A stretch of 64,000 nucleotides of DNA, taken from the IMG/VR virus record IMGVR_UViG_3300032116_022045. One strand, given 5' to 3'. Positions 9,747-58,790 of the stretch are shown here, in pieces; the stretch's first letter is position 1; each line of letters starts with the position of its first letter. Made by a program: the position numbers and the translations under genes. Source of the DNA: a virus. Its lineage: Duplodnaviria > Caudoviricetes. A model generated the notes under the pieces. The model did no database searches. It saw only the letters and a list, made by a program, of their open reading frames with translations, and was not told where the DNA came from.

Positions 9747-9953
9747 TTAAAAAAGCGTGATTAAAACAGTTAATACATATGATATTGATAATCCTAATAA
9801 AATTAATGATTTTTCACTTAATTTATATTTAACTGGTTCTATTTGTTCATCTGTATTATTACTATTGACTATAATTGTTTGAAACAAAAAATAACCATGT
9901 CTTACAATATTCAATATTGATAAGAAAAACAAAATCATTAATATTTTATCCAT
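9747..9953 (-). CDS. Small two-TM membrane protein
   Basis: 68 aa, two hydrophobic segments. Confidence 0.6.
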   Translation of the reverse strand: MDKILMILFFLSILNIVRHGYFLFQTIIVNSNNTDEQIEPVKYKLSEKSLILLGLSISYVLTVLITLF

Positions 9954-9973
9954 GATATAAAAATATGATAGTA

Positions 9974-10150
9974 TTAGTTATTTTTCTTTGCGTCAGATAC
10001 ATTAACCCTTAAAGTTTGTGCTAATGCTTTAACTTCTTGCATACCTTTTCTAAGTCTGGTACCAGCAGATTTGTTTTCTTTTTCAAAGAATTTGTTTGCA
10101 TCATTTTCTAATGATAGGATTAAGTTTTTTAGTTCTAGAAATGTTTCCAT
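9974..10150 (-). CDS. Histone H1-like protein (Hc1 family, Bacteroidota-type); start revised to ATG 10150
   Basis: METFLELKNLILSLENDANKFFEKENKSAGTRLRKGMQEVKALAQTLR; the NK(S/A)AGTRxRK motif is typical of the family. Confidence 0.8.
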   Translation of the reverse strand: METFLELKNLILSLENDANKFFEKENKSAGTRLRKGMQEVKALAQTLRVNVSDAKKNN

Positions 10151-10160
10151 AAATTTTAAT

Positions 10161-10388
10161 TTAATTATTGTTATTATTGTTATTATTTTCGTCACGTTTT
10201 AACATATTTGTTAATTTGTTTAAATTATGTTCTAACGTGTTTATTTTGCTTAATTGTTCTTTAATTTTACTTATTTTTTCATTAATGTCAATATTTGAAT
10301 TCATTAACCTCTCTAATTCGTCTTCTGACTTCAATATATCAGAAGTTAATTCCATAGTTAAGATTTGAAATACCCTATTATAATCCAT
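10161..10388 (-). CDS. Small coiled-coil hypothetical protein
   Basis: 75 aa; TATATTTG box 4 nt before the ATG. Confidence 0.65.
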   Translation of the reverse strand: MDYNRVFQILTMELTSDILKSEDELERLMNSNIDINEKISKIKEQLSKINTLEHNLNKLTNMLKRDENNNNNNNN

Positions 10389-10392
10389 ATAA

Positions 10393-10400
10393 CAAATATA
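10393..10400 (-). promoter_or_regulatory. Bacteroidota -7 element (probably leaderless transcript)
   Basis: TATATTTG-TTAT-ATG; ATTG at 20-nt spacing. Confidence 0.6.
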
Positions 10401-10430
10401 CTAACTTTAATTCAGTATATCAATACTTTT

Positions 10431-10847
10431 TTAATCTTTTTTTTCTAATATCTTATATATTTCAATTAAGACATCTAATTCAGATTTAGTTTTTGGTTTA
10501 ACATAATCAAAAACATCTAACCAAAACTTTAAACTTTTTTTATCGGTATAATCACTATCTTTATTAGTGTTATTATAAAAAGTTTCATTTAGAAACTGAA
10601 AAAAATATTCCTTTGATTTTTCATTTGTTAAATGAAAACCTTCTTTTAAAAAATTATCTACGTTTTTATCCCAACACCAATCATAATGTTTTTTCTGTTG
10701 TTTTTTATTTGTTATATCATCACCTAAATAAGTGTCATATATTAACATTAATAATGATTGTACAAAATCACTATATAATTCACATCTTTCAAATTTTATA
10801 TTATTTGCTATATATGTGACATTTATGTTATTATTGTTTGTTCCCAT
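10431..10847 (-). CDS. Hypothetical protein
   Basis: 138-aa ORF. Confidence 0.7.
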   Translation of the reverse strand: MGTNNNNINVTYIANNIKFERCELYSDFVQSLLMLIYDTYLGDDITNKKQQKKHYDWCWDKNVDNFLKEGFHLTNEKSKEYFFQFLNETFYNNTNKDSDYTDKKSLKFWLDVFDYVKPKTKSELDVLIEIYKILEKKD

Positions 10848-10900
10848 TATTAATATATAATTTAAATAAAATTATTTATTAATAAATAGTTAAAACAAAC

Positions 10901-10930
10901 AAAAAACCCCTACATTTGTAGGGGTTTTTT
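10901..10930. terminator. Intrinsic terminator
   Basis: AAAAAACCCCTAC-ATTT-GTAGGGGTTTTTT directly after the stop at 10934. Confidence 0.85.
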
Positions 10931-10933
10931 TAA

Positions 10934-13045
10934 TTAATCTAATCCTGAATCTTCTTGCGAATCTTCAATCGCTGTAAATATTCTTTCAGCCCTATTTTTA
11001 GAAGTAGCATACCTGTCTAAAAACTGGCTAGGTACTGAATACATCGTATTTCCTTTTTTTACGATATATTCACTAGGATTGTCAGCGTTTCTTAATAACA
11101 TCGCCTTATTAGAATCACCTATAAAATTTTCTGGTGATTTTTCTTTGTTTAAATCAACATCAGATGGTTCTAATTCTATCATAGAATCATCTTCTATTTC
11201 TGGTTTATCTTCTATTTCTAATTCCTCATCTTCTGTTTCCTCTTCAGTATCAGTTTCATCTTCTTCTTCATCTTCTTCTTCATCATCTAATGTTACTTCA
11301 TAAACAATGTCATCTAAATCCTCTTCACGGTAAAATCTGTTCTCTTCGTCAGAATAGCTATAATTATCTTCTACATCTTCTACATCTTCTTCATCTTCTC
11401 TGTCTTCTAAATCCGCTTTTCTTTTTTCATCACCTCTTGTCATAGCATTCCACCATTCGTCATCTTCATCTTCATCTTCGTCTTGGTTCCAAGGTGCTCT
11501 AGGGTCATACTCAGCGCCTGGAGGGTAATTACTCTCACTAACTTCAATTTCATATATGTTTTCATCAATATCACCGTCCATATCTTCGTATATACCTTCA
11601 TCCATACCTTCATACATACCTTCGTACATATCTTCGTGCATATCTTCGTACATACCTTCGTACATGTTTTCATCCATATAATCAAGTTCATCAAGATTCA
11701 TACGACCTTCTGTTGACATATAATCAGATTCTTTAATATGTTTTTTAGCTTCAGGTGCTTGTTTTACTTTATTCTTTGGCATCTCTGTTGTTTCTTTTTT
11801 AACAGCAGACATTTTTGTTTTACCTGAGTTAATATGTTTTGTTGCTTCAGGTGCTTTTTTAGTAACTTCGTCAAAATTACCTTCATTATAGTCAGCTTGT
11901 GATTCTATATTTTTACCAGAAGAACTTTTAAGTGGTTTTTTAGCTTCAGGTGCTTGTTTTTTAGCTTTATCTGGATTACCAGCTGTTGCCTTTGCTATTG
12001 GGGTGTCTTTGCTAACAGAACCATGAATGTGTTTTGTTGCTTCAGGTGCTTTTTTAGTAACTTCATCCCAATTACCTTCTGTTGCTTTAACACCTTCCAT
12101 ATCAGAACCTTCACTTAATAGTTTTTTTGTTTTATCTAAAATACTACCAAATACTTTATTCTCATTAATTCTTTCATTACCTTTAACAATACCTAAAGTA
12201 TCTTGTGATTTATAACCAAAAAGTTGTTTCATTCTTGTGATATCTTCATTAACTAAATTTTTATCTGAAGCTACTAATACAACTGGTTTACCATTATTTG
12301 AACCTTCCCATCTGATTCTGTAACTTTCATTACCATCAGTCATTTCAAATACTTTATTATTAGTTTTATATGATTCTGGTATTAATTTTAAAGCATTACC
12401 TAAACCATTAAATTCTTTTTTAAACTTAAGTCTTTTCATTTTATTGTTTTCTGTTAATTTATTATTATTCTCTTTATTTTCAAACATTGAATGTTTAACA
12501 ATAGTTTTATTACCTTTATTAGATTCTGTTGTACTTTCAACATCGTCACCAAAACTATAAATACCTTTTTCAGCTTTTATTCTTTTATCAAAAGATGATT
12601 TTGATATTCTATTAAAATTTTTACCAAAATCATCTGAAGATGCACCAAATGTTTCTTGAGCATTACCTACTTCTTTACCACCTTTGTTACCCATTCTAGT
12701 AGAACCTTCGATTGCTTCTTTATTTCTTTTTTTAAATCCTTCGCTTGGTTCTCTATCATATTCTAACATCTCCATACCATTTCTTATTTCAATTTCATTA
12801 TGGTATTCAACTTCATCTTCATTTGTGTAATTAAATTTATTTACAGGTATTTTATCACCACCAGCTTCTTCTTTACCTAAACCTTTTTCATAGTTAGTTA
12901 ATTCTTTACTAGTATCAGATAACCCTTTTTTATTTATCTTATTATTTTGATTTCTTATAGAATTATTCATAGAAATGGCTGGTGTGGCATCTTCAGATAT
13001 GAATAAACTATGTAATTTTTGTTGTATTTTGTTTTTATTACCCAT
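10934..13045 (-). CDS. Large low-complexity, repeat-rich protein; putative internal head/scaffold-like protein
   Basis: 703 aa; KKAPEATKHI/KQAPEAKK repeats, MYEG repeats, highly acidic C-terminus; ATATTTAT motif at 13059-13066. Confidence 0.55.
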   Translation of the reverse strand: MGNKNKIQQKLHSLFISEDATPAISMNNSIRNQNNKINKKGLSDTSKELTNYEKGLGKEEAGGDKIPVNKFNYTNEDEVEYHNEIEIRNGMEMLEYDREPSEGFKKRNKEAIEGSTRMGNKGGKEVGNAQETFGASSDDFGKNFNRISKSSFDKRIKAEKGIYSFGDDVESTTESNKGNKTIVKHSMFENKENNNKLTENNKMKRLKFKKEFNGLGNALKLIPESYKTNNKVFEMTDGNESYRIRWEGSNNGKPVVLVASDKNLVNEDITRMKQLFGYKSQDTLGIVKGNERINENKVFGSILDKTKKLLSEGSDMEGVKATEGNWDEVTKKAPEATKHIHGSVSKDTPIAKATAGNPDKAKKQAPEAKKPLKSSSGKNIESQADYNEGNFDEVTKKAPEATKHINSGKTKMSAVKKETTEMPKNKVKQAPEAKKHIKESDYMSTEGRMNLDELDYMDENMYEGMYEDMHEDMYEGMYEGMDEGIYEDMDGDIDENIYEIEVSESNYPPGAEYDPRAPWNQDEDEDEDDEWWNAMTRGDEKRKADLEDREDEEDVEDVEDNYSYSDEENRFYREEDLDDIVYEVTLDDEEEDEEEDETDTEEETEDEELEIEDKPEIEDDSMIELEPSDVDLNKEKSPENFIGDSNKAMLLRNADNPSEYIVKKGNTMYSVPSQFLDRYATSKNRAERIFTAIEDSQEDSGLD
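11570..11665 (-). repeat. 12-bp coding tandem repeat (~8 units, MYEG/MYED)
   Basis: Units ATG TAC GAA GGT/GAT with variants. Confidence 0.85.
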
Positions 13046-49598: not shown

Positions 49599-49985
49599 TT
49601 ATATTTTAACTATAATAAAATCTCTTGCTGTAAAAACACCGTCATTAATTGTGTATTCTAATTTTATTACAGCGGTATATTCTCTTTCTTCATCTTCTGT
49701 AACTGATAAATTATCAATATTAATTGTGGGGAAATATTTTTTTACTGTTGTTGATATTTCATCTTGTAAGTCACTATATGTGATACTATCATTTGGTTCA
49801 AATATATATAATAATAAATTAGTACCAAAATCTGGATTATATAATCTCTGACCCTTTCTTGTTAATATTAAATGCATTAAATCAGCTTTAATTGCAGCAT
49901 TATCTGTTGTCGTTAAATCAAGAAAAAAACCCTCTGGACTATTCTTAAACGGAAAATTAATATTTATATATCTCTTGCTAGCCAT
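49599..49985 (-). CDS. Baseplate wedge subunit (T4 gp25 / GPW-like)
   Basis: IKADLMHLILTRKGQRLYNPDFGTNL...FEP. Confidence 0.88.
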   Translation of the reverse strand: MASKRYININFPFKNSPEGFFLDLTTTDNAAIKADLMHLILTRKGQRLYNPDFGTNLLLYIFEPNDSITYSDLQDEISTTVKKYFPTINIDNLSVTEDEEREYTAVIKLEYTINDGVFTARDFIIVKI

Positions 49986-50024
49986 ATATCTTTATTTTAT
50001 AAATATATTAAAACATAATTTTAT

Positions 50025-50088
50025 ATAAATAAAAAAACCCCTAATGTTATTTAGAGGTTTTATTATTTTTGTGTGGTGGGGTTATTTA
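50025..50088. repeat. Direct repeat containing a terminator-like hairpin, copy 1
   Basis: ATAAATAAAAAAACCCCTAATGTTATTTAGAGGTTTTATT...TGTGGT.GG(G)TTATTTA; partner 50474..50536. Confidence 0.9.
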
Positions 50089-50399
50089 TTAAATATTTTT
50101 TTAACTTCATCCCAAGTTTTATTCTCTAAATTTACGGCATTTATTTTAGCAATTTCATCATCTTTAATACCTATAATATTTTTTAACATTGTGATTCTAA
50201 CCCACAATGCACCATTTTCCCATTTATCATCATCGTCTTTAAAAGAATGGATTGAATTCATTCTTGGGTCGTGGAACATACCAATCTCATCTTCCTTAAT
50301 AACCCCTTCAGTAATCTTTTGTTTTCTGGTAGTTTCTGTAATAATCTTATCGATTAAATTAACCAATTCACTTTCTTTAATTCTTACAACTTTTTTCAT
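50082..50399 (-). CDS. Leader-tagged protein A (105 aa); start revised
   Basis: MKKVVRIKESELVNLIDKIITETTRKQKITEG leader plus unique cargo; the longer ORF start reads through promoter and poly-T. Confidence 0.8.
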   Translation of the reverse strand: MKKVVRIKESELVNLIDKIITETTRKQKITEGVIKEDEIGMFHDPRMNSIHSFKDDDDKWENGALWVRITMLKNIIGIKDDEIAKINAVNLENKTWDEVKKIFNK

Positions 50400-50452
50400 A
50401 TCTTTTTTATGTTTTATAATAAATACATTAAGAAAAAAAAAAACCACAAATT
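50305..50452 (-). repeat. ~148-bp promoter + leader repeat, copy A
   Basis: Near-identical to 51029..51176 and 52112..52258. Confidence 0.95.
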
Positions 50453-50473
50453 TAATTATTTTTTTATTTACTA

Positions 50474-50536
50474 ATAAATAAAAAAACCCCTAATGTTATT
50501 TAGAGGTTTTATTCTTTTTTTGTGGTAGGTTATTTA
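50474..50536. repeat. Direct repeat containing a terminator-like hairpin, copy 2
   Basis: Partner of 50025..50088. Confidence 0.9.
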
Positions 50537-50577
50537 AAATAATTTTTTATTCTTAAATTTTCACTAACTTTTTGTTG

Positions 50578-51123
50578 TTAAGCTTGTGGTTTCGGTGCAT
50601 TGGGTCTTTGATTTGGATTTACCTCTCCACCCTTTCTTGTTGTTTTAGGACCTAGGGTAAGTCTGGCATAAGAATCTTTTTCTTCACCACCCCATCCGCT
50701 TCCAATCTCTATATATTCACCACTTAATCCTTTTTTTAGTTCTAGGTCTGGAAATTGCTTAGCAACTAAATTACCGTATTTTTGAGCATTAGCTTTATTA
50801 ACACCCCTAATATCAACATGTAATACATCACCATAAGCACTAATAAAAACGTTTTGATTTTTAACATCTGGACTTGTTACTTTTTTACCACCAAAATCTA
50901 GAAGTGGTGTCGCTCCTTCTTTTTTAAATAAAGAATATAATTGTTTACCGTAATTTTTTAATACTAAAGCATCTTCTTTCAAAACCATTTCTTCATTAAT
51001 AATCTGTTTTCCAGCTAAGTTTCTAACACCTTCAGTAATCTTTTGTTTTCTGGTAGTTTCTGTAATAATCTTATCGATTAAATTAACCAATTCACTTTCT
51101 TTAATTCTTACAACTTTTTTCAT
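50578..51123 (-). CDS. Leader-tagged protein B (181 aa); start revised
   Basis: Same leader, then IINEE/LKE motifs and unique cargo. Confidence 0.8.
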   Translation of the reverse strand: MKKVVRIKESELVNLIDKIITETTRKQKITEGVRNLAGKQIINEEMVLKEDALVLKNYGKQLYSLFKKEGATPLLDFGGKKVTSPDVKNQNVFISAYGDVLHVDIRGVNKANAQKYGNLVAKQFPDLELKKGLSGEYIEIGSGWGGEEKDSYARLTLGPKTTRKGGEVNPNQRPNAPKPQA

Positions 51124-51176
51124 ATCTTTTTTATGTTTTATAATAAATATATTAAGAAAAAAAAAAACCACAAATT
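51029..51176 (-). repeat. ~148-bp promoter + leader repeat, copy B
   Basis: Includes ATATTTAT (51143-51150) and half of the AAACCACAAA-TT-TTGTGGTTT terminator. Confidence 0.95.
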
Positions 51177-51222
51177 TTGTGGTTTTTTTCATTTGTGTAA
51201 TACCATTATATTCTCAATAATT

Positions 51223-52206
51223 TTACAAAATATCAGTTGATATAGAATCTTTATCAACTTCTAATTTATCGCCATTAGATTTTTTAAGTTTAAAAGTAAC
51301 TTCTTTAGTGGGTTCATCACCACTTTGAGATGTAACAATAATTGTATATTCTACACCGACTTGAAAATCTCGTTCATCCATCGACCCTTGACCATAAGAT
51401 TCTAAAGCATAAGCAAAATCTTCAGAATTTACTTCACCTAAATTATCTGGAATAATAACAGATTGAGTTCCATCTTGTCCTCTATGATAATATTCTTCTT
51501 CATTAATCATTTGTCTAATAGTTTTATTTGATTCTGTAATAATTTTATCGATTAAATTAACCAAATCACTTTCTTTAATTCTTACAACTTTTTTATTTTC
51601 ATTTATTTCTTTAGAATCAGGTATAATAACAGCATATCTTCCACCCCATTCTGATGTTCTTGGTATATTTGGGTCTCCTGGGAAAGCGGATAATACAATA
51701 TATTCATTAGGTATTGCAGTGCCTTTTTCATCTTTTTTTGGTCTAACGATTATTGTTAATTCATCTGTTCTAAATTGGTTTATTGGTGCTGTTGTTTTAA
51801 TTGCTGGTACTTTTATTTTATTAGGACCTTCAATTTTCTCAACTTCAGTTTCTTGAGCATTAGGTAATTTTTTAGCATCTTCTATTGGTAGTACCAAATT
51901 GTAACCAATATTTGGTACTTTAATATTTACTGTTCCAGTTGTATTAGCAATTTTATCAATATCATTTCTTTTATTTAATGTGTCTTGAACTATATTTAAA
52001 ACATCATCAATAGATTTAGCAAAAATAGAACCTTGACCAACTTTACCATGTACATCCTCTAATTTATCTTTTAATGACCAACCGCTAACATCTTTTGTTG
52101 GTATTGTAACGCCTTCAGTAATTTTTCTTTTTCTAGTAGTTTCTGTGATAATTTTATCGATTAAATTAACCAATTCACTTTCTTTAATTCTTACAACTTT
52201 TTTCAT
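51223..52206 (-). CDS. Leader-tagged protein C (327 aa) with two leader-cargo units; start revised
   Basis: Leader at the N-terminus and again internally (KKVVRIKESDLVNLIDKIITE, 51532..51594). Confidence 0.8.
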   Translation of the reverse strand: MKKVVRIKESELVNLIDKIITETTRKRKITEGVTIPTKDVSGWSLKDKLEDVHGKVGQGSIFAKSIDDVLNIVQDTLNKRNDIDKIANTTGTVNIKVPNIGYNLVLPIEDAKKLPNAQETEVEKIEGPNKIKVPAIKTTAPINQFRTDELTIIVRPKKDEKGTAIPNEYIVLSAFPGDPNIPRTSEWGGRYAVIIPDSKEINENKKVVRIKESDLVNLIDKIITESNKTIRQMINEEEYYHRGQDGTQSVIIPDNLGEVNSEDFAYALESYGQGSMDERDFQVGVEYTIIVTSQSGDEPTKEVTFKLKKSNGDKLEVDKDSISTDIL

Positions 52207-52258
52207 ATCTTTTTTATGTTTTATAATAAATACATTAAGAAAAAAAAAAACCACAAAT
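52112..52258 (-). repeat. ~147-bp promoter + leader repeat, copy C
   Basis: A few mostly synonymous changes versus A/B; terminator AAACCACAAAT-ATTTGTGGTTT at about 52248-52270. Confidence 0.95.
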
Positions 52259-52294
52259 ATTTGTGGTTTTTTGTTTGTGTTATTTATTATTATT

Positions 52295-53389
52295 TTAACT
52301 TGAACAACCAAAACATTCAAATTGACTGTCGGTTGGTTTTTTGGTAACGGTTATTTGTGTTGAAGCTAATTTTGTATTAGTGTCAAGCTTTGATTTTGTT
52401 CTAGTATAATAAACACCAGTTTTTAATCCACCTTTCCAAGCATACATTAATGCACTGGCAATTTTACCATATTTAGCATCAGAATGATAAACATTTAATG
52501 ACTGTGATTGGTCAACATATTTGTTTCTAATTATAGCTAAATCTAATAAAACTCTTTGTGGTATTTCCCATACATCTTTATACCTATACCTAACCTCTTC
52601 AGGTATTTCAGTAATGTTCTGTATACTTCCCTTATTCTTAATAACCTTATCAATCATTTCAACATCCCAAAGATTATTTTCAAGCAATTCATTAACAAGA
52701 TATTTGTTGATAACCAAAAACTCACCTTGACCAACACGCCTTGTAAATAAATTTGATGTTACAGGTTCAAATGATTCAAAAACACCTAATAAAATCGCAC
52801 TGGTAGCTGTAGGCATTAATCCTAATAACAAACTGTTATACAATGGTATTGGTTCTCCATTTGGTTTTGGTGACCATCCTTCAATATATGTTTCACCCTT
52901 TGAATATAAACTACCTTCCCAAGCTGGATAATTAACACCAAGTTCTTCAGCAATTGTCATTGATTCAATAATTGCTGATTTATACATTGTTTCAAATATC
53001 TTATGTGTCCATTCTTTAGCTTCTTCACTTTCAAAAGATATTTTTTTCTTTGCAAAGAAATCAGCTAAACCAGCTACACCAATTGCTAATGCTCTTTGTT
53101 CTAAACCAGCAGATTCGCTCCATTCATCACTCCATTTATTTTTATTTATAACCTCATTTAATCCTCTAACCAATATCTTTGTTGATGTTTCTATTGTATC
53201 AATATCATCATGTTCAGATAAATTAATTGATGCTAATGTGCATTGAGATGTTTTTCTTGGTGAGCTGGCCTGGAAAATTTCTGCACAGTTGTGGATAAGT
53301 ATTCCATTTGCAAAAAAATTATTATTACCATCTATCGTTAAATCATATACTGGTAATGTTGTCTCGATTTTTCTTATTTTAATCCCCAT
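52295..53389 (-). CDS. nrdA: Split-intein C fragment (34 aa, 53288..53389) fused to the C-terminal half of class Ia ribonucleotide reductase alpha
   Basis: MGIKIRK...VYDLTIDGNNNFFANGILIHN|CAEIFQ; CTLASINL, RALAIGVAGLAD, MPTATS, DQSQSLN, LKTGVYYTR. Confidence 0.93.
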   Translation of the reverse strand: MGIKIRKIETTLPVYDLTIDGNNNFFANGILIHNCAEIFQASSPRKTSQCTLASINLSEHDDIDTIETSTKILVRGLNEVINKNKWSDEWSESAGLEQRALAIGVAGLADFFAKKKISFESEEAKEWTHKIFETMYKSAIIESMTIAEELGVNYPAWEGSLYSKGETYIEGWSPKPNGEPIPLYNSLLLGLMPTATSAILLGVFESFEPVTSNLFTRRVGQGEFLVINKYLVNELLENNLWDVEMIDKVIKNKGSIQNITEIPEEVRYRYKDVWEIPQRVLLDLAIIRNKYVDQSQSLNVYHSDAKYGKIASALMYAWKGGLKTGVYYTRTKSKLDTNTKLASTQITVTKKPTDSQFECFGCSS

Positions 53390-53390
53390 A

Positions 53391-54428
53391 TTATTTTATT
53401 ATTTCATTTATGTTTGTTAATACTTTTTTTAGGTATACGTATCTTATTTTATTTTCATTACAATATTTTTTAGCGGCATTAATTTTCATTTCTTCATTTA
53501 ATTTTCCTTTTACACCCCTAATAAACCCTTTAATCTCTAATAATATTTTTTCACCATTATATTCGATTAAAAAATCTGGTAAGTATAACGTACCGTTTTC
53601 CTTTTCAATATAAAAAGGTTCATAACTATATATTATATTATTTAGTTCTAAAAATTCTATTGTTTTAAATTCCCAAGAACTTCTATACCTTATTATACTT
53701 TTATTTAAACAATTCTTTACTTTAATAAAACCAGTTTTAAAGAATTTTGTTGACCCCATATTTTCATTCCTATTCATGCTAATAGTTGATATTATTGACA
53801 TCATTTTTGTGTGTATAGTATTTATATTTTCATCACATATATTAATATCATTAATTTCATTCTTAAAGTTTAAAAATATCGTTTCATTTAAATATTTATT
53901 AGATTTTAAAAAATTTTTAACCTTTTTTATCTTATATTGTTTTGATTTTCTTAAATCTGAAATTGTTAATCCATATAATTTATTTATTTCATCTTCCGTT
54001 TTTAATGTTGTATCTATGTTTTTATTATTTAAAAATTTTATTTTAAAATTAATACTAGAGTTTTGAATTTTTTTTGTTTCTCTAAACGAATCGCCTCTAT
54101 TAATACCCTTCATTTTTATTTTCATCTTTTCAGAATGTTCTGGTCTTAATTTACCTTTACTATGATAACCCTTAAAAAAATTAACGCAGTCATCAGGCCA
54201 TGCAAATCTACCGTTCTTCCATATTTTTAATATGTTGTTATTTGAGTAACAATTCTTAAAATTATCAAATGTTAATACGTTATTTAAATATAAGTTTTTC
54301 AAAGCTTTGTGTTTTTGATATACATCTTTTATTATTTTATCAATATATTTAATTAATTCTGAATCAAATAACGTTATAAAATCTTTGTTATTAATTAATT
54401 CATTTATTTTTGTGTGTTTTTTTATCAT
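53391..54428 (-). mobile_element. Free-standing homing endonuclease, PD-(D/E)XK (TnsA-N/gp4-like) type
   Basis: YRSSWE...F.E...I.Y.YEP...YLPDF...LEIKG; basic repeats upstream; sits between the two intein halves. Confidence 0.75.
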
Positions 54429-54480
54429 ATAAATTGGTCTTTTTAATAAATATTTTAATTTATTAAAAAGACCAATTTAT
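54429..54480 (-). promoter_or_regulatory. 22-bp perfect hairpin abutting the endonuclease start codon, with an embedded late motif
   Basis: ATAAATTGGTCTTTTTAATAAA (54429-54450) / TTTATTAAAAAGACCAATTTAT (54459-54480); ATATTTAT on the minus strand at 54446-54453. Confidence 0.8.
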
Positions 54481-54487
54481 GTTTAGG

Positions 54488-55969
54488 TTATTGTAATATT
54501 TTTAACATATCGTTTTCAATTAAGTCTTTAGCCATAACATACCCTCTATTAATTGTATATATTTTATGTTCTGGTGTGCATATTAGTTTTTTATTTGTTT
54601 TATCATCTATTATTTCTAAAACTTCTGCATCTTTACTAGTCATAGCTGATGCTAATAGCTGTTTGTATTCTATAATATCGTTTTCAATATTATAAGATTT
54701 AACTAATATATTCTTATTGACTTTAAATAATTCATTTAATGTTTTGATATCAACCTTATGTTCTTCATTATCTAAAATTATGTCTATTATTGAATCTTCA
54801 GATATGCATAGATTACTCATTTTAATTGGACCAATATTTGATTGCATATTTCTTTTGTTAGCGTTGTCTTTATACATAACATAAGGTCTGCCACTCTCAA
54901 CTTGAGATTTAATAATAGAGTCAAATATTTCTTTAGGATTTACTTTCTTACCTATACCTAGATTAACAGCTTTTTCATACTCTTCATTAAATTCAGTACC
55001 ATATAAATCATATAATGGTCTTAATCCAGCTTTTTTAATATCATTAGGACAAAATAAATACCAATCACCACCAGTTTCTAATCTCTCCATAAACAAATCA
55101 TTTATTACAACAGCTGTAAATAAATCACGTGTTCTTAATTGTTCATCCCCAATTGGTAATGTTAATTCTAAGAAATCAATAATATCTTTATGCCAAACAG
55201 ATAAATATAAAGCGCAACTACCAGAACGAGAACCTTGTTTATAAAATCTCATTTTTGATTGTACCATGTCAGCAAATCTAACAATACCACCAGCATTACC
55301 TTGAAAAGATTCTACAACACTTTCTTTGCTTCTTAATGGGTCAACCAATAACCCAATACCAGAACCTTCTTTAGATGCTGCTGATATCATCGTTAATGTG
55401 TTTTCTATTTCTTGAAAGCTATCCCCTTCTAAATGTGTTAAGTTACAAGAAATCATACCACCTCGTTTATCAATACCAGCATTGGTATAAATTGGTGTGG
55501 CAAAATTAATTCTTTTTAAATTAAGCTCATTTATTAAATTATTTCTTAACTCTTCATTATCACCATGTAAATGATTTGCAACCCTTTCATACATACATGA
55601 TGGTAATTCAATAGGGTTTTTATTAGAATCTCTTTTAGAATATTTAGTTAAAAAAGTTGTTGCAGCAAAAAAATCATATGTTAAATCAACTGGTTTTAAT
55701 TCTTTACCAATTAATTTAGATTGTCTACTTAATAAAATCCTACCACCAAGTAATGAATAATCTGGGTGTTGTATTATCTTGTCAGCCGCTTTAAACGCTA
55801 TTATCTCGTCAATCTCAGTTGTTGTTATGTTATCCGTTATCAATGGTATAACCTCTTGAAATAATGAATCAGAATCAATTTTTAATCCATTTGATTGACC
55901 TTTTATTCTACTTAGAATCTTATTTGGCATAAATGCCTGTGTCGTTTTATCTCTCTTTAATATTCTCAT
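54488..55969 (-). CDS. nrdA: N-terminal half of ribonucleotide reductase alpha (387 aa) fused to split-intein N fragment (106 aa, 54488..54808)
   Basis: ATPIYTNAG, ISCNL, EGSGIG, QGSRSGS, SGRPY, KMSNL|CISEDS...CTPEHKIYT.NRGYV.AKDL...*. Confidence 0.93.
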   Translation of the reverse strand: MRILKRDKTTQAFMPNKILSRIKGQSNGLKIDSDSLFQEVIPLITDNITTTEIDEIIAFKAADKIIQHPDYSLLGGRILLSRQSKLIGKELKPVDLTYDFFAATTFLTKYSKRDSNKNPIELPSCMYERVANHLHGDNEELRNNLINELNLKRINFATPIYTNAGIDKRGGMISCNLTHLEGDSFQEIENTLTMISAASKEGSGIGLLVDPLRSKESVVESFQGNAGGIVRFADMVQSKMRFYKQGSRSGSCALYLSVWHKDIIDFLELTLPIGDEQLRTRDLFTAVVINDLFMERLETGGDWYLFCPNDIKKAGLRPLYDLYGTEFNEEYEKAVNLGIGKKVNPKEIFDSIIKSQVESGRPYVMYKDNANKRNMQSNIGPIKMSNLCISEDSIIDIILDNEEHKVDIKTLNELFKVNKNILVKSYNIENDIIEYKQLLASAMTSKDAEVLEIIDDKTNKKLICTPEHKIYTINRGYVMAKDLIENDMLKILQ

Positions 55970-56718: not shown

Positions 56719-56802
56719 ATGTCAGAATCAGAAATTATGTTATCTAGAGGTATAAATAAGATATATGATTGTGGTACTGTTAAATGGGTAATTAATTACT
56801 AA
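56719..56802 (+). pseudogene. Remnant of the C-terminus of a phage mobile endonuclease
   Basis: Translates MSESEIMLSRGINKIYDCGTVKWVINY*, resembling the recalled E.EIM..RG..(R/K)I(Y/W)DCG..K tail. Confidence 0.5.
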
Positions 56803-57685
56803 ACGTGTCAAAAATTTTTCTATGGAACTCATCGTAGGTTAAATCTGGTGATATTGTTACAATAGGGTTAATTTTTATTTCTAAATTTATTGGTAGTTCT
56901 TTATTTAATATTTTTGCTGCCATATATCTATGATGACCATCTTCTATATAAAACCCTGGTTTTTTATTTTTAATTTTTAAAAATGAGACATCAATTGGTT
57001 CTGATAAGTTTATTTTTTTAGCCCATTCTTTTGGTGATAAACCGCTTTTTTCTATTTCATATACAACATTTTCCAAATCGGCTAACCATTTTAATTTTAA
57101 TTCTTTTGGTTTTAAGGTTTTAATATCTTCTTCAGAAAAACCATGTGCTAATCTATCTAATAGTTCTATTGATAAACCACCACTTCTAAGTAATTGTTCT
57201 GATGTTTCATATTTTGATAATTCTTTTTTTAAATCATTAATGTATAAATCATTTTTAAATTTAAAAACATCATTATATAATGTGTTTTCAGTTATTAGTT
57301 CGTCAAAAATAACATCCCATTTGGTTAGAGGTATCCACCCATATTTTGTTTTTATTTCTAATTTATTTACTGGGATATTTTCAAATGTTATATATTCATC
57401 ACCTTTATTATTTTTTATTCTGTTAGACAATTCAAAATCATCAGTTAAAATTGTTCTTAATATTACCATTCTATCTTTACCACCTTTAGACATGGCATAA
57501 TATTTTGCATAATCAATATCGTTTGTGAAGCTAATTGAAGGTTTTATTTCACCAACATTATTTGTTTTAATATAACCATCTTTTTTTATATTGTTTGCAG
57601 CACCTTTACTAGTCCCATGATAAAGATAAATCTGTTCATTATTATTGGTAATTTCCCTTAATAGTTTTCTTATTAGTTGTTTCAT
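56792..57685 (-). CDS. Leader-tagged ADP-ribosyltransferase-like domain plus ParB-like domain
   Basis: MKQLIRKLLRE; YLYHGTS...I...G...SFT.D..YA..YA...E; C-terminal IEDGHHRYMAAK. Confidence 0.7.
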   Translation of the reverse strand: MKQLIRKLLREITNNNEQIYLYHGTSKGAANNIKKDGYIKTNNVGEIKPSISFTNDIDYAKYYAMSKGGKDRMVILRTILTDDFELSNRIKNNKGDEYITFENIPVNKLEIKTKYGWIPLTKWDVIFDELITENTLYNDVFKFKNDLYINDLKKELSKYETSEQLLRSGGLSIELLDRLAHGFSEEDIKTLKPKELKLKWLADLENVVYEIEKSGLSPKEWAKKINLSEPIDVSFLKIKNKKPGFYIEDGHHRYMAAKILNKELPINLEIKINPIVTISPDLTYDEFHRKIFDTFSN

Positions 57686-57700
57686 TTATCTTTTTTTTTA

Positions 57701-58210
57701 TTAAAATAAATCAATATAATATTTTTGGGTGAATTCTTCTATTTTAAATAGGGTTCTGTTCATATCATTTATTATTCTATCTAATTCGTTTTTTGGTATT
57801 TCTTCATTATTTTTTACCATTATTTCTTTATTATAAGATAGGGTTTCATTTAAACCTTTCATCGCAATAATAAAAACTCTAAATGTTAAATCATCCATTT
57901 CTTTTGGTTGCATTGTATGAAATTGATTTTTTATAATAAATTTATGAAACGTATTATCATTTATTTTATGTGGGTAATAAATGATTTCAGATGAGATGTT
58001 TAACTGTGGGAATTTTATTATTTCATCACCCATCATCATTGTTACGTTTTCATTATAAACTACTCTTTGTGCTTCTAATCTTTTTTCGTCTCTAGGGTGT
58101 TTAAATATATTATATTCTTTAAGAAAAGGGATTCTTTTAATTAATATATCTTTAATATTATTGTTTGATTCTAAGTTTTCTCTTAGTAATTTTTTAATTA
58201 ATTTTTTCAT
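57701..58210 (-). CDS. Leader-tagged hypothetical protein; start revised to ATG 58210
   Basis: MKKLIKKLLRENLE N-terminus. Confidence 0.7.
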   Translation of the reverse strand: MKKLIKKLLRENLESNNNIKDILIKRIPFLKEYNIFKHPRDEKRLEAQRVVYNENVTMMMGDEIIKFPQLNISSEIIYYPHKINDNTFHKFIIKNQFHTMQPKEMDDLTFRVFIIAMKGLNETLSYNKEIMVKNNEEIPKNELDRIINDMNRTLFKIEEFTQKYYIDLF

Positions 58211-58214
58211 GTTA

Positions 58215-58790
58215 TTAATGGTCTCCGACAATAGCGTTAATTGGTTTTTTTAATTCTTCACCATTTATTTTAATTATTTTCACATTAGTACCTTTATTTA
58301 GCGCACATTCCCATTGGTCTTCACCATACCAAATAAATGAATGAAACCCATAAATCCAATCTATATCTTTTGGGTTAATAATAGCTTCTAATATATAAGG
58401 TTCACCCGTTTTCATCATTTTTATATTTGGGTGTCGCTCTCCGTATGCCCCAACGCCATTTTCATCAAATGACCAATGCTTACCTATATCTTTTATATCT
58501 AAATCTTTTATAGAATTTAATTTAATTAATCTATAAATTGTTATTTTATTACTGTTTTTTAATTCATTATATTTATCAACATATAGTTCTATTCTTTCTA
58601 TATAATTATCTCTAGAGTATTCTGCTTGTATATCATTTTTATCTTCTTCATACGCATCAAAAGATTCAGCAACGTCTTCTATATTTTCATAAGCGTATTT
58701 TGTCGCTGTTTCGTAGTTAGATAAAAATGAATCATATTCATTATATTCATTTAAATTTTCTCTTAATATTTTTTTAATTAAATTTTTCAC
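58215..58790 (-). CDS. Leader-tagged R-S-E-clan ADP-ribosyltransferase-like protein
   Basis: MKNLIKKILRENLNE (GTG start); TIYR...HWSFD...EDQWEC.L..G. Confidence 0.6.
   Translation of the reverse strand: MKNLIKKILRENLNEYNEYDSFLSNYETATKYAYENIEDVAESFDAYEEDKNDIQAEYSRDNYIERIELYVDKYNELKNSNKITIYRLIKLNSIKDLDIKDIGKHWSFDENGVGAYGERHPNIKMMKTGEPYILEAIINPKDIDWIYGFHSFIWYGEDQWECALNKGTNVKIIKINGEELKKPINAIVGDH

Follow-up and report, generated by a model that had tools for sequence, protein, structure and literature searches.

The window, a stretch of 64,000 nucleotides, is part of the IMG/VR virus record IMGVR_UViG_3300032116_022045 (Duplodnaviria; Caudoviricetes) and carries an array of three genes, C, B and A, all on the minus strand, between the C-terminal part of a split nrdA gene and a gp25-like baseplate gene. 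Each of the three opens with the same leader peptide and continues into a protein part of its own, here called the cargo. Comparison with close relatives demonstrates the modular exchange of cargos at a constant leader. It further appears likely that the leader is a cleavable head-targeting signal carried on recombination handles resembling PeSLs, the terminator-plus-promoter repeats that mediate ORFan shuffling in T4-type phages (PMC2839356, PMC4122927). An earlier note on this DNA had proposed an expression-plus-packaging module; the exchange it implied is borne out, while capsid loading is still inferred, backed by a protease-type junction at the cargo border, a cargo gene adjacent to a prohead protease gene in other phages and a motif shared with scaffold proteins, in a record without head genes.

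An alignment of the three gene starts defines a common head composed of a hairpin (CCACAAA..TTTGTGG), a T-run, the motif (A/G)TATTTAT, an A-rich 5′ untranslated region (5′UTR), the ATG and 33 codons spelling MKKVVRIKESELVNLIDKIITETTRK(Q/R)KITEGV. Over ~60 nt of upstream sequence and 99 coding nt, the three heads are 92–100% identical; the shared identity stops after the codons for ...ITEGV, and the sequences beyond are unrelated. The block of terminator half, motif, 5′UTR and leader that had been described at three gene starts is thus present as claimed, although the count of leader copies was too low, a fourth lying in frame inside gene C. Repeat family D1 has 166-nt copies at 50300, 51024 and 52107. 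A second repeat with a terminator (D3) does flank the 3′ ends of A and B, as first reported, but measures 78 nt instead of ~63 bp; its two copies are 85% identical and contain intrinsic-terminator hairpins of −11 to −15 kcal/mol (z −4 to −7). Six terminator-like sites were observed against 0.8 expected. Head A retains only the 3′ half of the hairpin; since half-heads of this type behind a 3′ terminator recur in two relatives (L009 and L010), this arrangement represents a standard junction type, not a unique break.

The strongest evidence for exchange comes from relatives L009 and L010/L011, which match the window at 97% nucleotide identity up to position 52274 and again from 50103, with a different array in between. 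The window array consists of C, B and A; that of L009 contains a 37-aa basic open reading frame (ORF), then 150-aa, 181-aa and B-type genes; that of L010 contains the 37-aa ORF, then genes of 150, 130, 280 and 173 aa. The heads and cassette B are the only shared parts. A constant leader with variable cargo, looked for at the same locus between 97%-identical flanks, is therefore what is found, and the breaks in homology at 52274 and 50103 agree with the earlier suggestion that the repeats serve as recombination handles for cargo exchange. Among these close relatives, cassettes are gained, lost and replaced with breakpoints at the repeats. Cassette A, together with its half-head, sits between both 78-nt terminator repeats, as insertion through recombination at that place would produce. 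In L013, which is another phage, the same leader precedes three other cargos at a different locus. Assemblies from other samples break at the heads, and a few contigs join across exactly one cassette: joints 50079>50528, 51189>52284 and 50465>50992, seen in assembled contigs with short sides, fit cassette-loss variants and give a weak hint of their existence. The 37-aa ORF, which is extremely basic (MPTHKRKGHKRIIETRKGSTNSRKVVRVSKTTVKRKK), opens the array in L009 (7266–7379) and L010 (5823–5936) and is missing from the window.

The leader, 31–50 residues long, is composed of an amphipathic helix (KKVVRIKESELVNLIDKIITE), a short basic linker and an (I/L/V)-x-E site. The three triplets previously read in it are found at IKE-9, ITE-22 and ITE-31, with further IKE, INE and LKE triplets in A and B. 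The degenerate pattern KKVVRIKES(E/D) has 4 matches in place of the 0.01 expected, the fourth (51566–51594) being the in-frame copy inside gene C, which has no promoter or hairpin ahead of it. Among 1.84 billion protein representatives, a leader profile retrieved 52 clusters (50% identity level), most of which bear the leader at residue 1, while in others it is internal, lies at both ends or, in small basic proteins, is present twice. Among 13 leader copies taken from four loci, the only differences are synonymous changes of the third base and V/I, R/K, E/D and N/T replacements; promoterless internal copies still preserve the peptide, and distant members (MKKTIRLTESELTNLV.KIINE) retain the amphipathic pattern. 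As read from these substitutions, selection acts on the leader peptide, beyond the DNA repeat. The profile did not detect the window's leader in LR756508, Microcystis phage Mel-JY01 or Flavobacterium phage immuto, tblastn of the leader proteins against cultured phages gave no match, and a metagenome scan with leader patterns returned only 5 loci, none within a head module; the contig around P0056 extended over just 1 kb. In another giant-phage group, which includes a TARA Oceans scaffold, a 62–68-aa protein combining the leader helix with a coiled coil (..VKIKE.DLVNLIDKIV.E..KKKEW..EQ..) is encoded by a conserved single-copy gene (L006, L007, L069, L070, L071) that adjoins an RNase H-like gene and a leucine-rich repeat protein; it may be a partner or an ancestor of the tag.

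The cargos, by comparison of their homologues, are independent modules that move between leaders. Those of A, B and C do not align with each other, and the full-length cargo homology that plain paralogue duplication would leave, named beforehand as grounds for refutation, is not seen. Homologues of cargo B occur behind four other N-terminal leaders, e.g., MATKKITLNELRSIVKQIIKEE and MKQ.INEI.RMQ.LAGI..ES, nearly all joined at LNE|D. Homologues of cargo C1 form at least 184 clusters, with 60–79% identity across lineages. In relatives, cargo C2 can either precede or follow C1, so gene C is best described as two cargos on one chain; its AlphaFold2 (AF2) model consists of a confident C1 domain, a long helix for the internal leader and a small C2 domain. 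A homologue search with C2 alone found none, C2 being detected only within C1 matches. Pfam and PHROGs searches with A, B, C and ten further cargos yielded nothing significant, and ESM Atlas gave nothing usable for B and C. The AF2 models of B and C, with predicted local distance difference test (pLDDT) scores of 73 and 75, matched only uncharacterised proteins in PDB, BFVD, AFDB clusters and VIA-wide. For C1, a series of hits to CdiA-CT, YxiD, MafB and RelE-like RNase-toxin folds had Z 5–6.6, values within the noise range of the tool, and no function was assigned on this basis. No immunity-like ORF lies beside the cassettes, each of which is a single ORF between terminators. Two further readings of the tagged genes were ruled out: a leader and core of the kind found in ribosomally synthesised and post-translationally modified peptides, because the cargos are folded 70–170-aa domains, and a Sec signal, because the leader is not hydrophobic.

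The border between leader and cargo has the sequence features of a prohead-protease site. An h-x-E triplet (h being I, L, V, M or F) is present 9–13 residues past the helix, behind the basic linker, in 34 of the 50 leader copies; at least 15 differing linker sequences preserve it, and its background frequency is 0.017 per residue. Internal leaders are mostly preceded by such a triplet, as in gene C (...EINE|NKKVV...) and P0043 (...NVNE|TKKIV...). The best example is provided by C1: (L/I)-x-E stands directly N-terminal to the domain start (A/V/G/S)VEVP(T/S)W in all 108 homologues with a recognisable start (LNE 37, ITE 15, LAE 14, LTE 13, and others), and this holds whether the upstream part is a leader, a spacer or another domain. 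The (L/I)-x-E motif is that of the T4 prohead protease, and A, B and C all contain it as ITE-31, A and B having a further h-x-E at the cargo border. The h residue at the junction is nearly always I, L or V, unlike the A, S or G of the (A/S/G)-x-E pattern. In lineages with the RMQxLAGI leader, many tagged proteins also share a C-terminal tail, ..(I/V)V(N/D)(E/K)AL.K(Y/F/I)R..K, usually located after an h-x-E (P0005–P0019, P0088, P0091, P0111, P0140; L058 429–971), which the three proteins of the window lack. By analogy with T4 Alt, this tail may be a second, C-terminal propeptide.

In T4-like relatives, the C1-C2 pair is encoded amid head genes. Peptidase_S77, the T4 gp21-type prohead protease, was identified above the Pfam cut-off in three of the five longest IMG/VR records bearing C1, and adjoins C1 in two. 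The gene order in G004 and G005 runs from terminase (read in G004 only) through a portal-position protein (placed by size and position in G004, with no family match), a protein starting with MDIKEYIK.L.RE.LDE and a ~545-aa protein to the S77 protease (phrog_207, 3e-54), followed by leader-tagged proteins, including a C1-C2 polyprotein, and by an acidic scaffold-position protein; in G005, where the locus extends far enough, it ends with the major capsid protein (phrog_138, 8e-74). The C-termini of the scaffold-position proteins are the leader motif of those same phages (...SRWQMLAGITKY in G005, ...IKRMQKLANIIK in G003), and a second coiled-coil protein of G003 ends with ...IRKMQYYAGISK. In the cultured Flavobacterium phage immuto (vB_FspM_immuto, host Flavobacterium sp. 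LMO8), two ORFans, immuto35A_42 and immuto35A_187, begin with MKKQILSEQF(K/R)RMQ.LAGIITES, and the homologue encoded between the annotated prohead protease and gp23 ends with ...SRWQKLAGIIK. This immuto protein (L072, MW353176.1 125582–126823) is very acidic and annotated as 'DNA polymerase phi-like'; because of its acidity, its position between protease and gp23 and its C-terminal end, it looks like a scaffold and not a polymerase. Scaffold C-termini bind the shell or the core in other phages, and a tag copying the scaffold peptide would therefore be a plausible means of entering the prohead. The match between this one leader family and the scaffold C-terminal peptide suggests targeting by mimicry of the scaffold tail.

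These elements can be assembled into a model. Each cassette is a self-contained unit comprising a terminator for the preceding gene, a promoter-like motif, the leader segment, an exchangeable cargo ORF and sometimes a 3′ terminator of its own. The leader helix would dock the protein into the assembling prohead core or scaffold, and a T4-type (S77) prohead protease would then cut after the glutamate, so that the cargo is freed within the head. From the gene C product, which on this view is a polyprotein, cuts at ITE-31, INE-203 and INE-236 would release two cargos. Since every cassette contains ~160 nt of near-identical DNA, homologous recombination between heads, as well as between the 78-nt 3′ repeats, could add, delete or replace cargos as PeSLs do, and the address label would travel together with the regulatory signals. 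Docking, cleavage, packaging and any delivery to the host are the inferred steps of this scheme. A broader proposal is offered tentatively, as a possibility we rate a little below even: a whole group of T4-related phages in aquatic settings, ranging in size from the 160 kb of Flavobacterium phages to the 290 kb or more of freshwater phages, might use a few interchangeable helical labels, each copying the C-terminal peptide of the phage's own scaffold, in order to load an open-ended set of horizontally traded small proteins, polyproteins included, into the head, where (L/I)-x-E cleavage would free them.

Several observations weigh against head targeting. The link to the scaffold motif belongs to the RMQxLAGI leader of other lineages, and it extends to the window's leader only because cargos B, C1 and C2 sit behind both leader families. 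An S77 protease, a major capsid protein and a scaffold are absent from the 108-kb record, which represents an estimated ~31% of the genome (Pfam searches for S77 and Gp23), and 10-kb walks past both record ends met no head genes, only tail and baseplate genes on one side and small early-type ORFs on the other. Both in the window and in L013 the cassettes are next to baseplate genes, and C1 lies among replication genes in some phages (L024, L027). The leader motif is also found at C-termini and in small leader-only proteins, which a simple N-terminal capsid-targeting sequence (CTS) does not predict. The h-x-E triplet is common in K/E/I/N-rich proteins, and no cargo searched has a recognisable family or fold (Pfam, PHROGs, structure searches). 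Finally, because ATATTTAT, the motif at the cassette heads, precedes a helicase-like gene besides baseplate genes, the promoter is not callable as late.

Part of this evidence would suit a leader that acts as a docking or oligomerisation helix for a target outside the head, such as a cytoplasmic hub or a baseplate or tail attachment site, to which exchangeable tailspikes, for instance, bind by a conserved N-terminal anchor; cleavage would not be required. In the window the array stands immediately upstream of gp25 and gp6, and in L013 the cassettes do so with a T4_baseplate-like gene; copies of the motif can also be C-terminal, tandem or joined to a coiled coil, and the replication-gene setting of C1 in L024 and L027 would be accommodated as well. 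Such a role nevertheless appears unlikely, given the invariant (L/I)-x-E at cargo borders, the position of C1-C2 between protease and scaffold in G004 and G005, the leader motif on the scaffold C-terminus, and cargos of 70–170 aa, some with transmembrane (TM) helices, that are unlike receptor-binding proteins. Somewhat less probable again is a role of the tagged proteins as parts of the prohead core or scaffold, which would be fragmented and expelled as the head matures, being neither retained nor injected. T4 gp22, gp67 and gp68 behave in this way (PMC5694885), the scaffold itself bears the motif, and small leader-only and leader-plus-coiled-coil proteins do exist; however, C1 is a compact, highly conserved globular domain (pLDDT 80–96, 60–79% identity) with sites at its borders only, and the turnover of cargos in near-identical phages is typical of accessory and not of structural functions.

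A purely genetic role, in which the repeat is an expression or recombination module reaching into the coding region like an extended PeSL and the peptide has no function of its own, is improbable. Gene conversion would give the near-identity in DNA of the window's three copies, and the breaks of assemblies at the heads are compatible with it, but the changes are exclusively synonymous or conservative, internal copies stay in frame without a promoter, and in divergent relatives both the h-x-E and the amphipathic pattern persist despite other codons and linkers. Plain paralogy, i.e., an ordinary tandem family with a common N-terminus, is ruled out for practical purposes, since the cargos cannot be aligned and have separate sets of homologues behind other leaders.

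Head targeting by a cleavable leader, the reading retained here, has precedents. The window's leader is not known to resemble the CTS of T4 in sequence. The parallel lies in organisation: the N-terminal packaging leader is the sole part shared by T4 Ip1–3, which are encoded in a genomic hotspot and injected (PMC12373910, PMC3012670), and gp21 removes the CTS propeptides, Alt being cut at ITE-6 and LTE-619 (PMC5694885). Here too, one short N-terminal peptide is borne by otherwise unrelated accessory proteins in a variable hotspot and ends with (I/L)-x-E (ITE-31, compared with ITE-6 in Alt), and a cargo gene adjoins the S77 protease in related phages. Unlike the T4 CTS of 10–20 residues (PMC5694885), the leader spans 31–50 residues arranged as helix, basic linker and site; the cargos number in the dozens, several leader families can replace one another, some products are polyproteins that contain internal leaders, and packaging is a prediction from sequence. 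As with PeSLs, repeated units of terminator hairpin and promoter-like motif, the promoter being read from the motif alone, flank ORFans and mark the breakpoints of indels and replacements. However, the repeat extends ~100 nt into the ORF, so that a protein tag shuffles with the signals, and its motif is ATATTTAT, in contrast to a strong sigma-70-like early promoter. Giant phages use longer, multi-site propeptides, and some of their ejection proteins have TM helices (PMC5694885). The head and ejection proteins of phiKZ and SPN3US resemble the present ones in these long multi-site propeptides, in paralogues with identical N-termini (their gp53/gp54) and in TM-helix ejection proteins (PMC5694885), but their S80 protease cuts (A/S/G)-x-E instead of (I/L/V)-x-E and their families are paralogous, whereas one tag precedes unrelated cargos here. 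Lastly, MuF polymorphic toxins of temperate phages also join a constant N-terminal head-associated part to a variable C-terminal part (PMC12226406), yet the MuF part is a large folded domain that comes with immunity genes, and the cassettes have no immunity-like ORF. The system thus combines CTS-type tagging as in T4 with PeSL-type shuffling; it differs in the length of the leader, the interchangeable leader families, the polyproteins and the location of the tag inside the recombining repeat.

If this reading is correct, sequence could be used to predict which proteins uncultured giant phages pack into the head, probably accessory or anti-defence factors for a first strike, and cargos would be traded as ready-made cassettes, in which terminator, promoter and address label form one recombination unit. 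The cultured Flavobacterium phage with an RMQxLAGI-type leader makes a direct test of this idea possible, and a scaffold ending in a VRIKESELVNLIDKI-like peptide, if present in the complete genome, would tie the window's own leader to the head. Phage engineering might gain new packaging tags from such leaders, following the example of the T4 CTS. The features of the array and its flanks are collected in Table 1.

Table 1. Coordinates of the cassette array and its constant flanks, in window positions.
Feature	Positions	Strand	Remark
NrdA C-terminal part, constant upstream flank	52295..53389	-	97% nt identity to L009/L010 up to 52274
Head C, terminator-like hairpin (CCACAAAtattTTTGTGG + T-run), after nrdA C-part	52245..52272	-	-12.3 kcal/mol, z -3.6
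Head C, promoter-like motif GTATTTAT	52226..52233	-	27 nt 5′ of ATG
Gene C, 327 aa: leader, cargo C1, internal leader, cargo C2	51223..52206	-	ORF and AF2 model
Leader codons of gene C (M1-V33)	52108..52206	-	ITE-31
Cargo C1, residues 32-203	51598..52113	-	ends ...EINE; pLDDT 80-96
Internal promoterless leader of gene C, N204-E236	51499..51597	-	ends INE; one long helix predicted
Cargo C2, residues 237-327	51226..51498	-	
Head B, terminator-like hairpin	51160..51190	-	-13.6 kcal/mol
Head B, ATATTTAT motif	51143..51150	-	
Gene B, 181 aa: leader extended to INE-44 and LKE-50, cargo B from D51	50578..51123	-	
3′ repeat copy 1, after gene B	50474..50551	-	terminator hairpin 50483-50510
Head A: half hairpin, T-run, GTATTTAT, 5′UTR	50400..50465	-	GTATTTAT at 50419-50426
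Gene A, 105 aa: leader and ~70-aa cargo	50082..50399	-	ITE-31, IKE-36
3′ repeat copy 2, after gene A	50025..50102	-	terminator hairpin 50034-50061
gp25-like baseplate wedge gene, constant downstream flank	49599..49985	-	

The motif of the cassette heads also recurs elsewhere in the genome. ATATTTAT is located 21–28 nt 5′ of the ATG in ~25 genes on the coding strand, gp25 and gp6 among them, often right after a terminator hairpin (e.g., at window positions 50006, 49562, 31426, 13066 and 62095), and is, from this placement, probably a phage promoter element. The sigma-70 consensus showed no enrichment. Three small contigs from one RNA library, 100% identical to the window, fall inside A, B and C and give a weak hint of cassette expression, short of proof.

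The record that contains the window is 108.7 kb long with 26.8% G+C, and the same phage is found in public contigs of up to 293.5 kb. The stretch is contained in ~19 DNA runs from 15 studies, whose labels are mostly freshwater, while a DNA search with the locus against 50,697 phage records gave zero matches. The gp6 baseplate protein is 27–29% identical to its homologues in an uncultured 484-kb phage, Microcystis phage Mel-JY01 and Flavobacterium phage immuto. The phage encodes a SprB-repeat protein, and no Shine-Dalgarno sequences were seen in its genome; both features hint at a host among the Bacteroidota.

Around the array, the nrdA gene is split (window 52295–55969): the N-part, of 493 aa, closes with an intein N-fragment (weak match to Pfam Intein_splicing), the C-part, of 364 aa, starts with an intein C-fragment (...GILIHN|CAEIF), and between the two lies an ORF of 345 aa with a TnsA-like endonuclease N-terminal domain (PF08722, E 1.2e-4), an arrangement kept in L008–L011. 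In L009, a 588-aa Mom-like/DUF7487 gene absent from the window is inserted on the opposite strand between gp25 and gp6 (9830–11596), and a second Mom-like gene (518 aa) takes the place of the window's 297-aa gene upstream of nrdA. An IS605 OrfB/TnpB (Cas12f-like) gene belongs to the genome of the same phage, just beyond the record end region (L075/L076, 6255–7454). An ADP-ribosyltransferase reading of the neighbouring operon was dropped for want of Pfam support. A shorter second tag, MK.LIKKLLRE.L(N/L)E, opens three adjacent genes (window 56792–58790) and several others in the genome (3919, 76926, 89840, 94111, 97809 and 107780, in record coordinates); Pfam assigned no family to the second-tag proteins, and one second-tag gene, of 280 aa, lies within the cassette array of L010.

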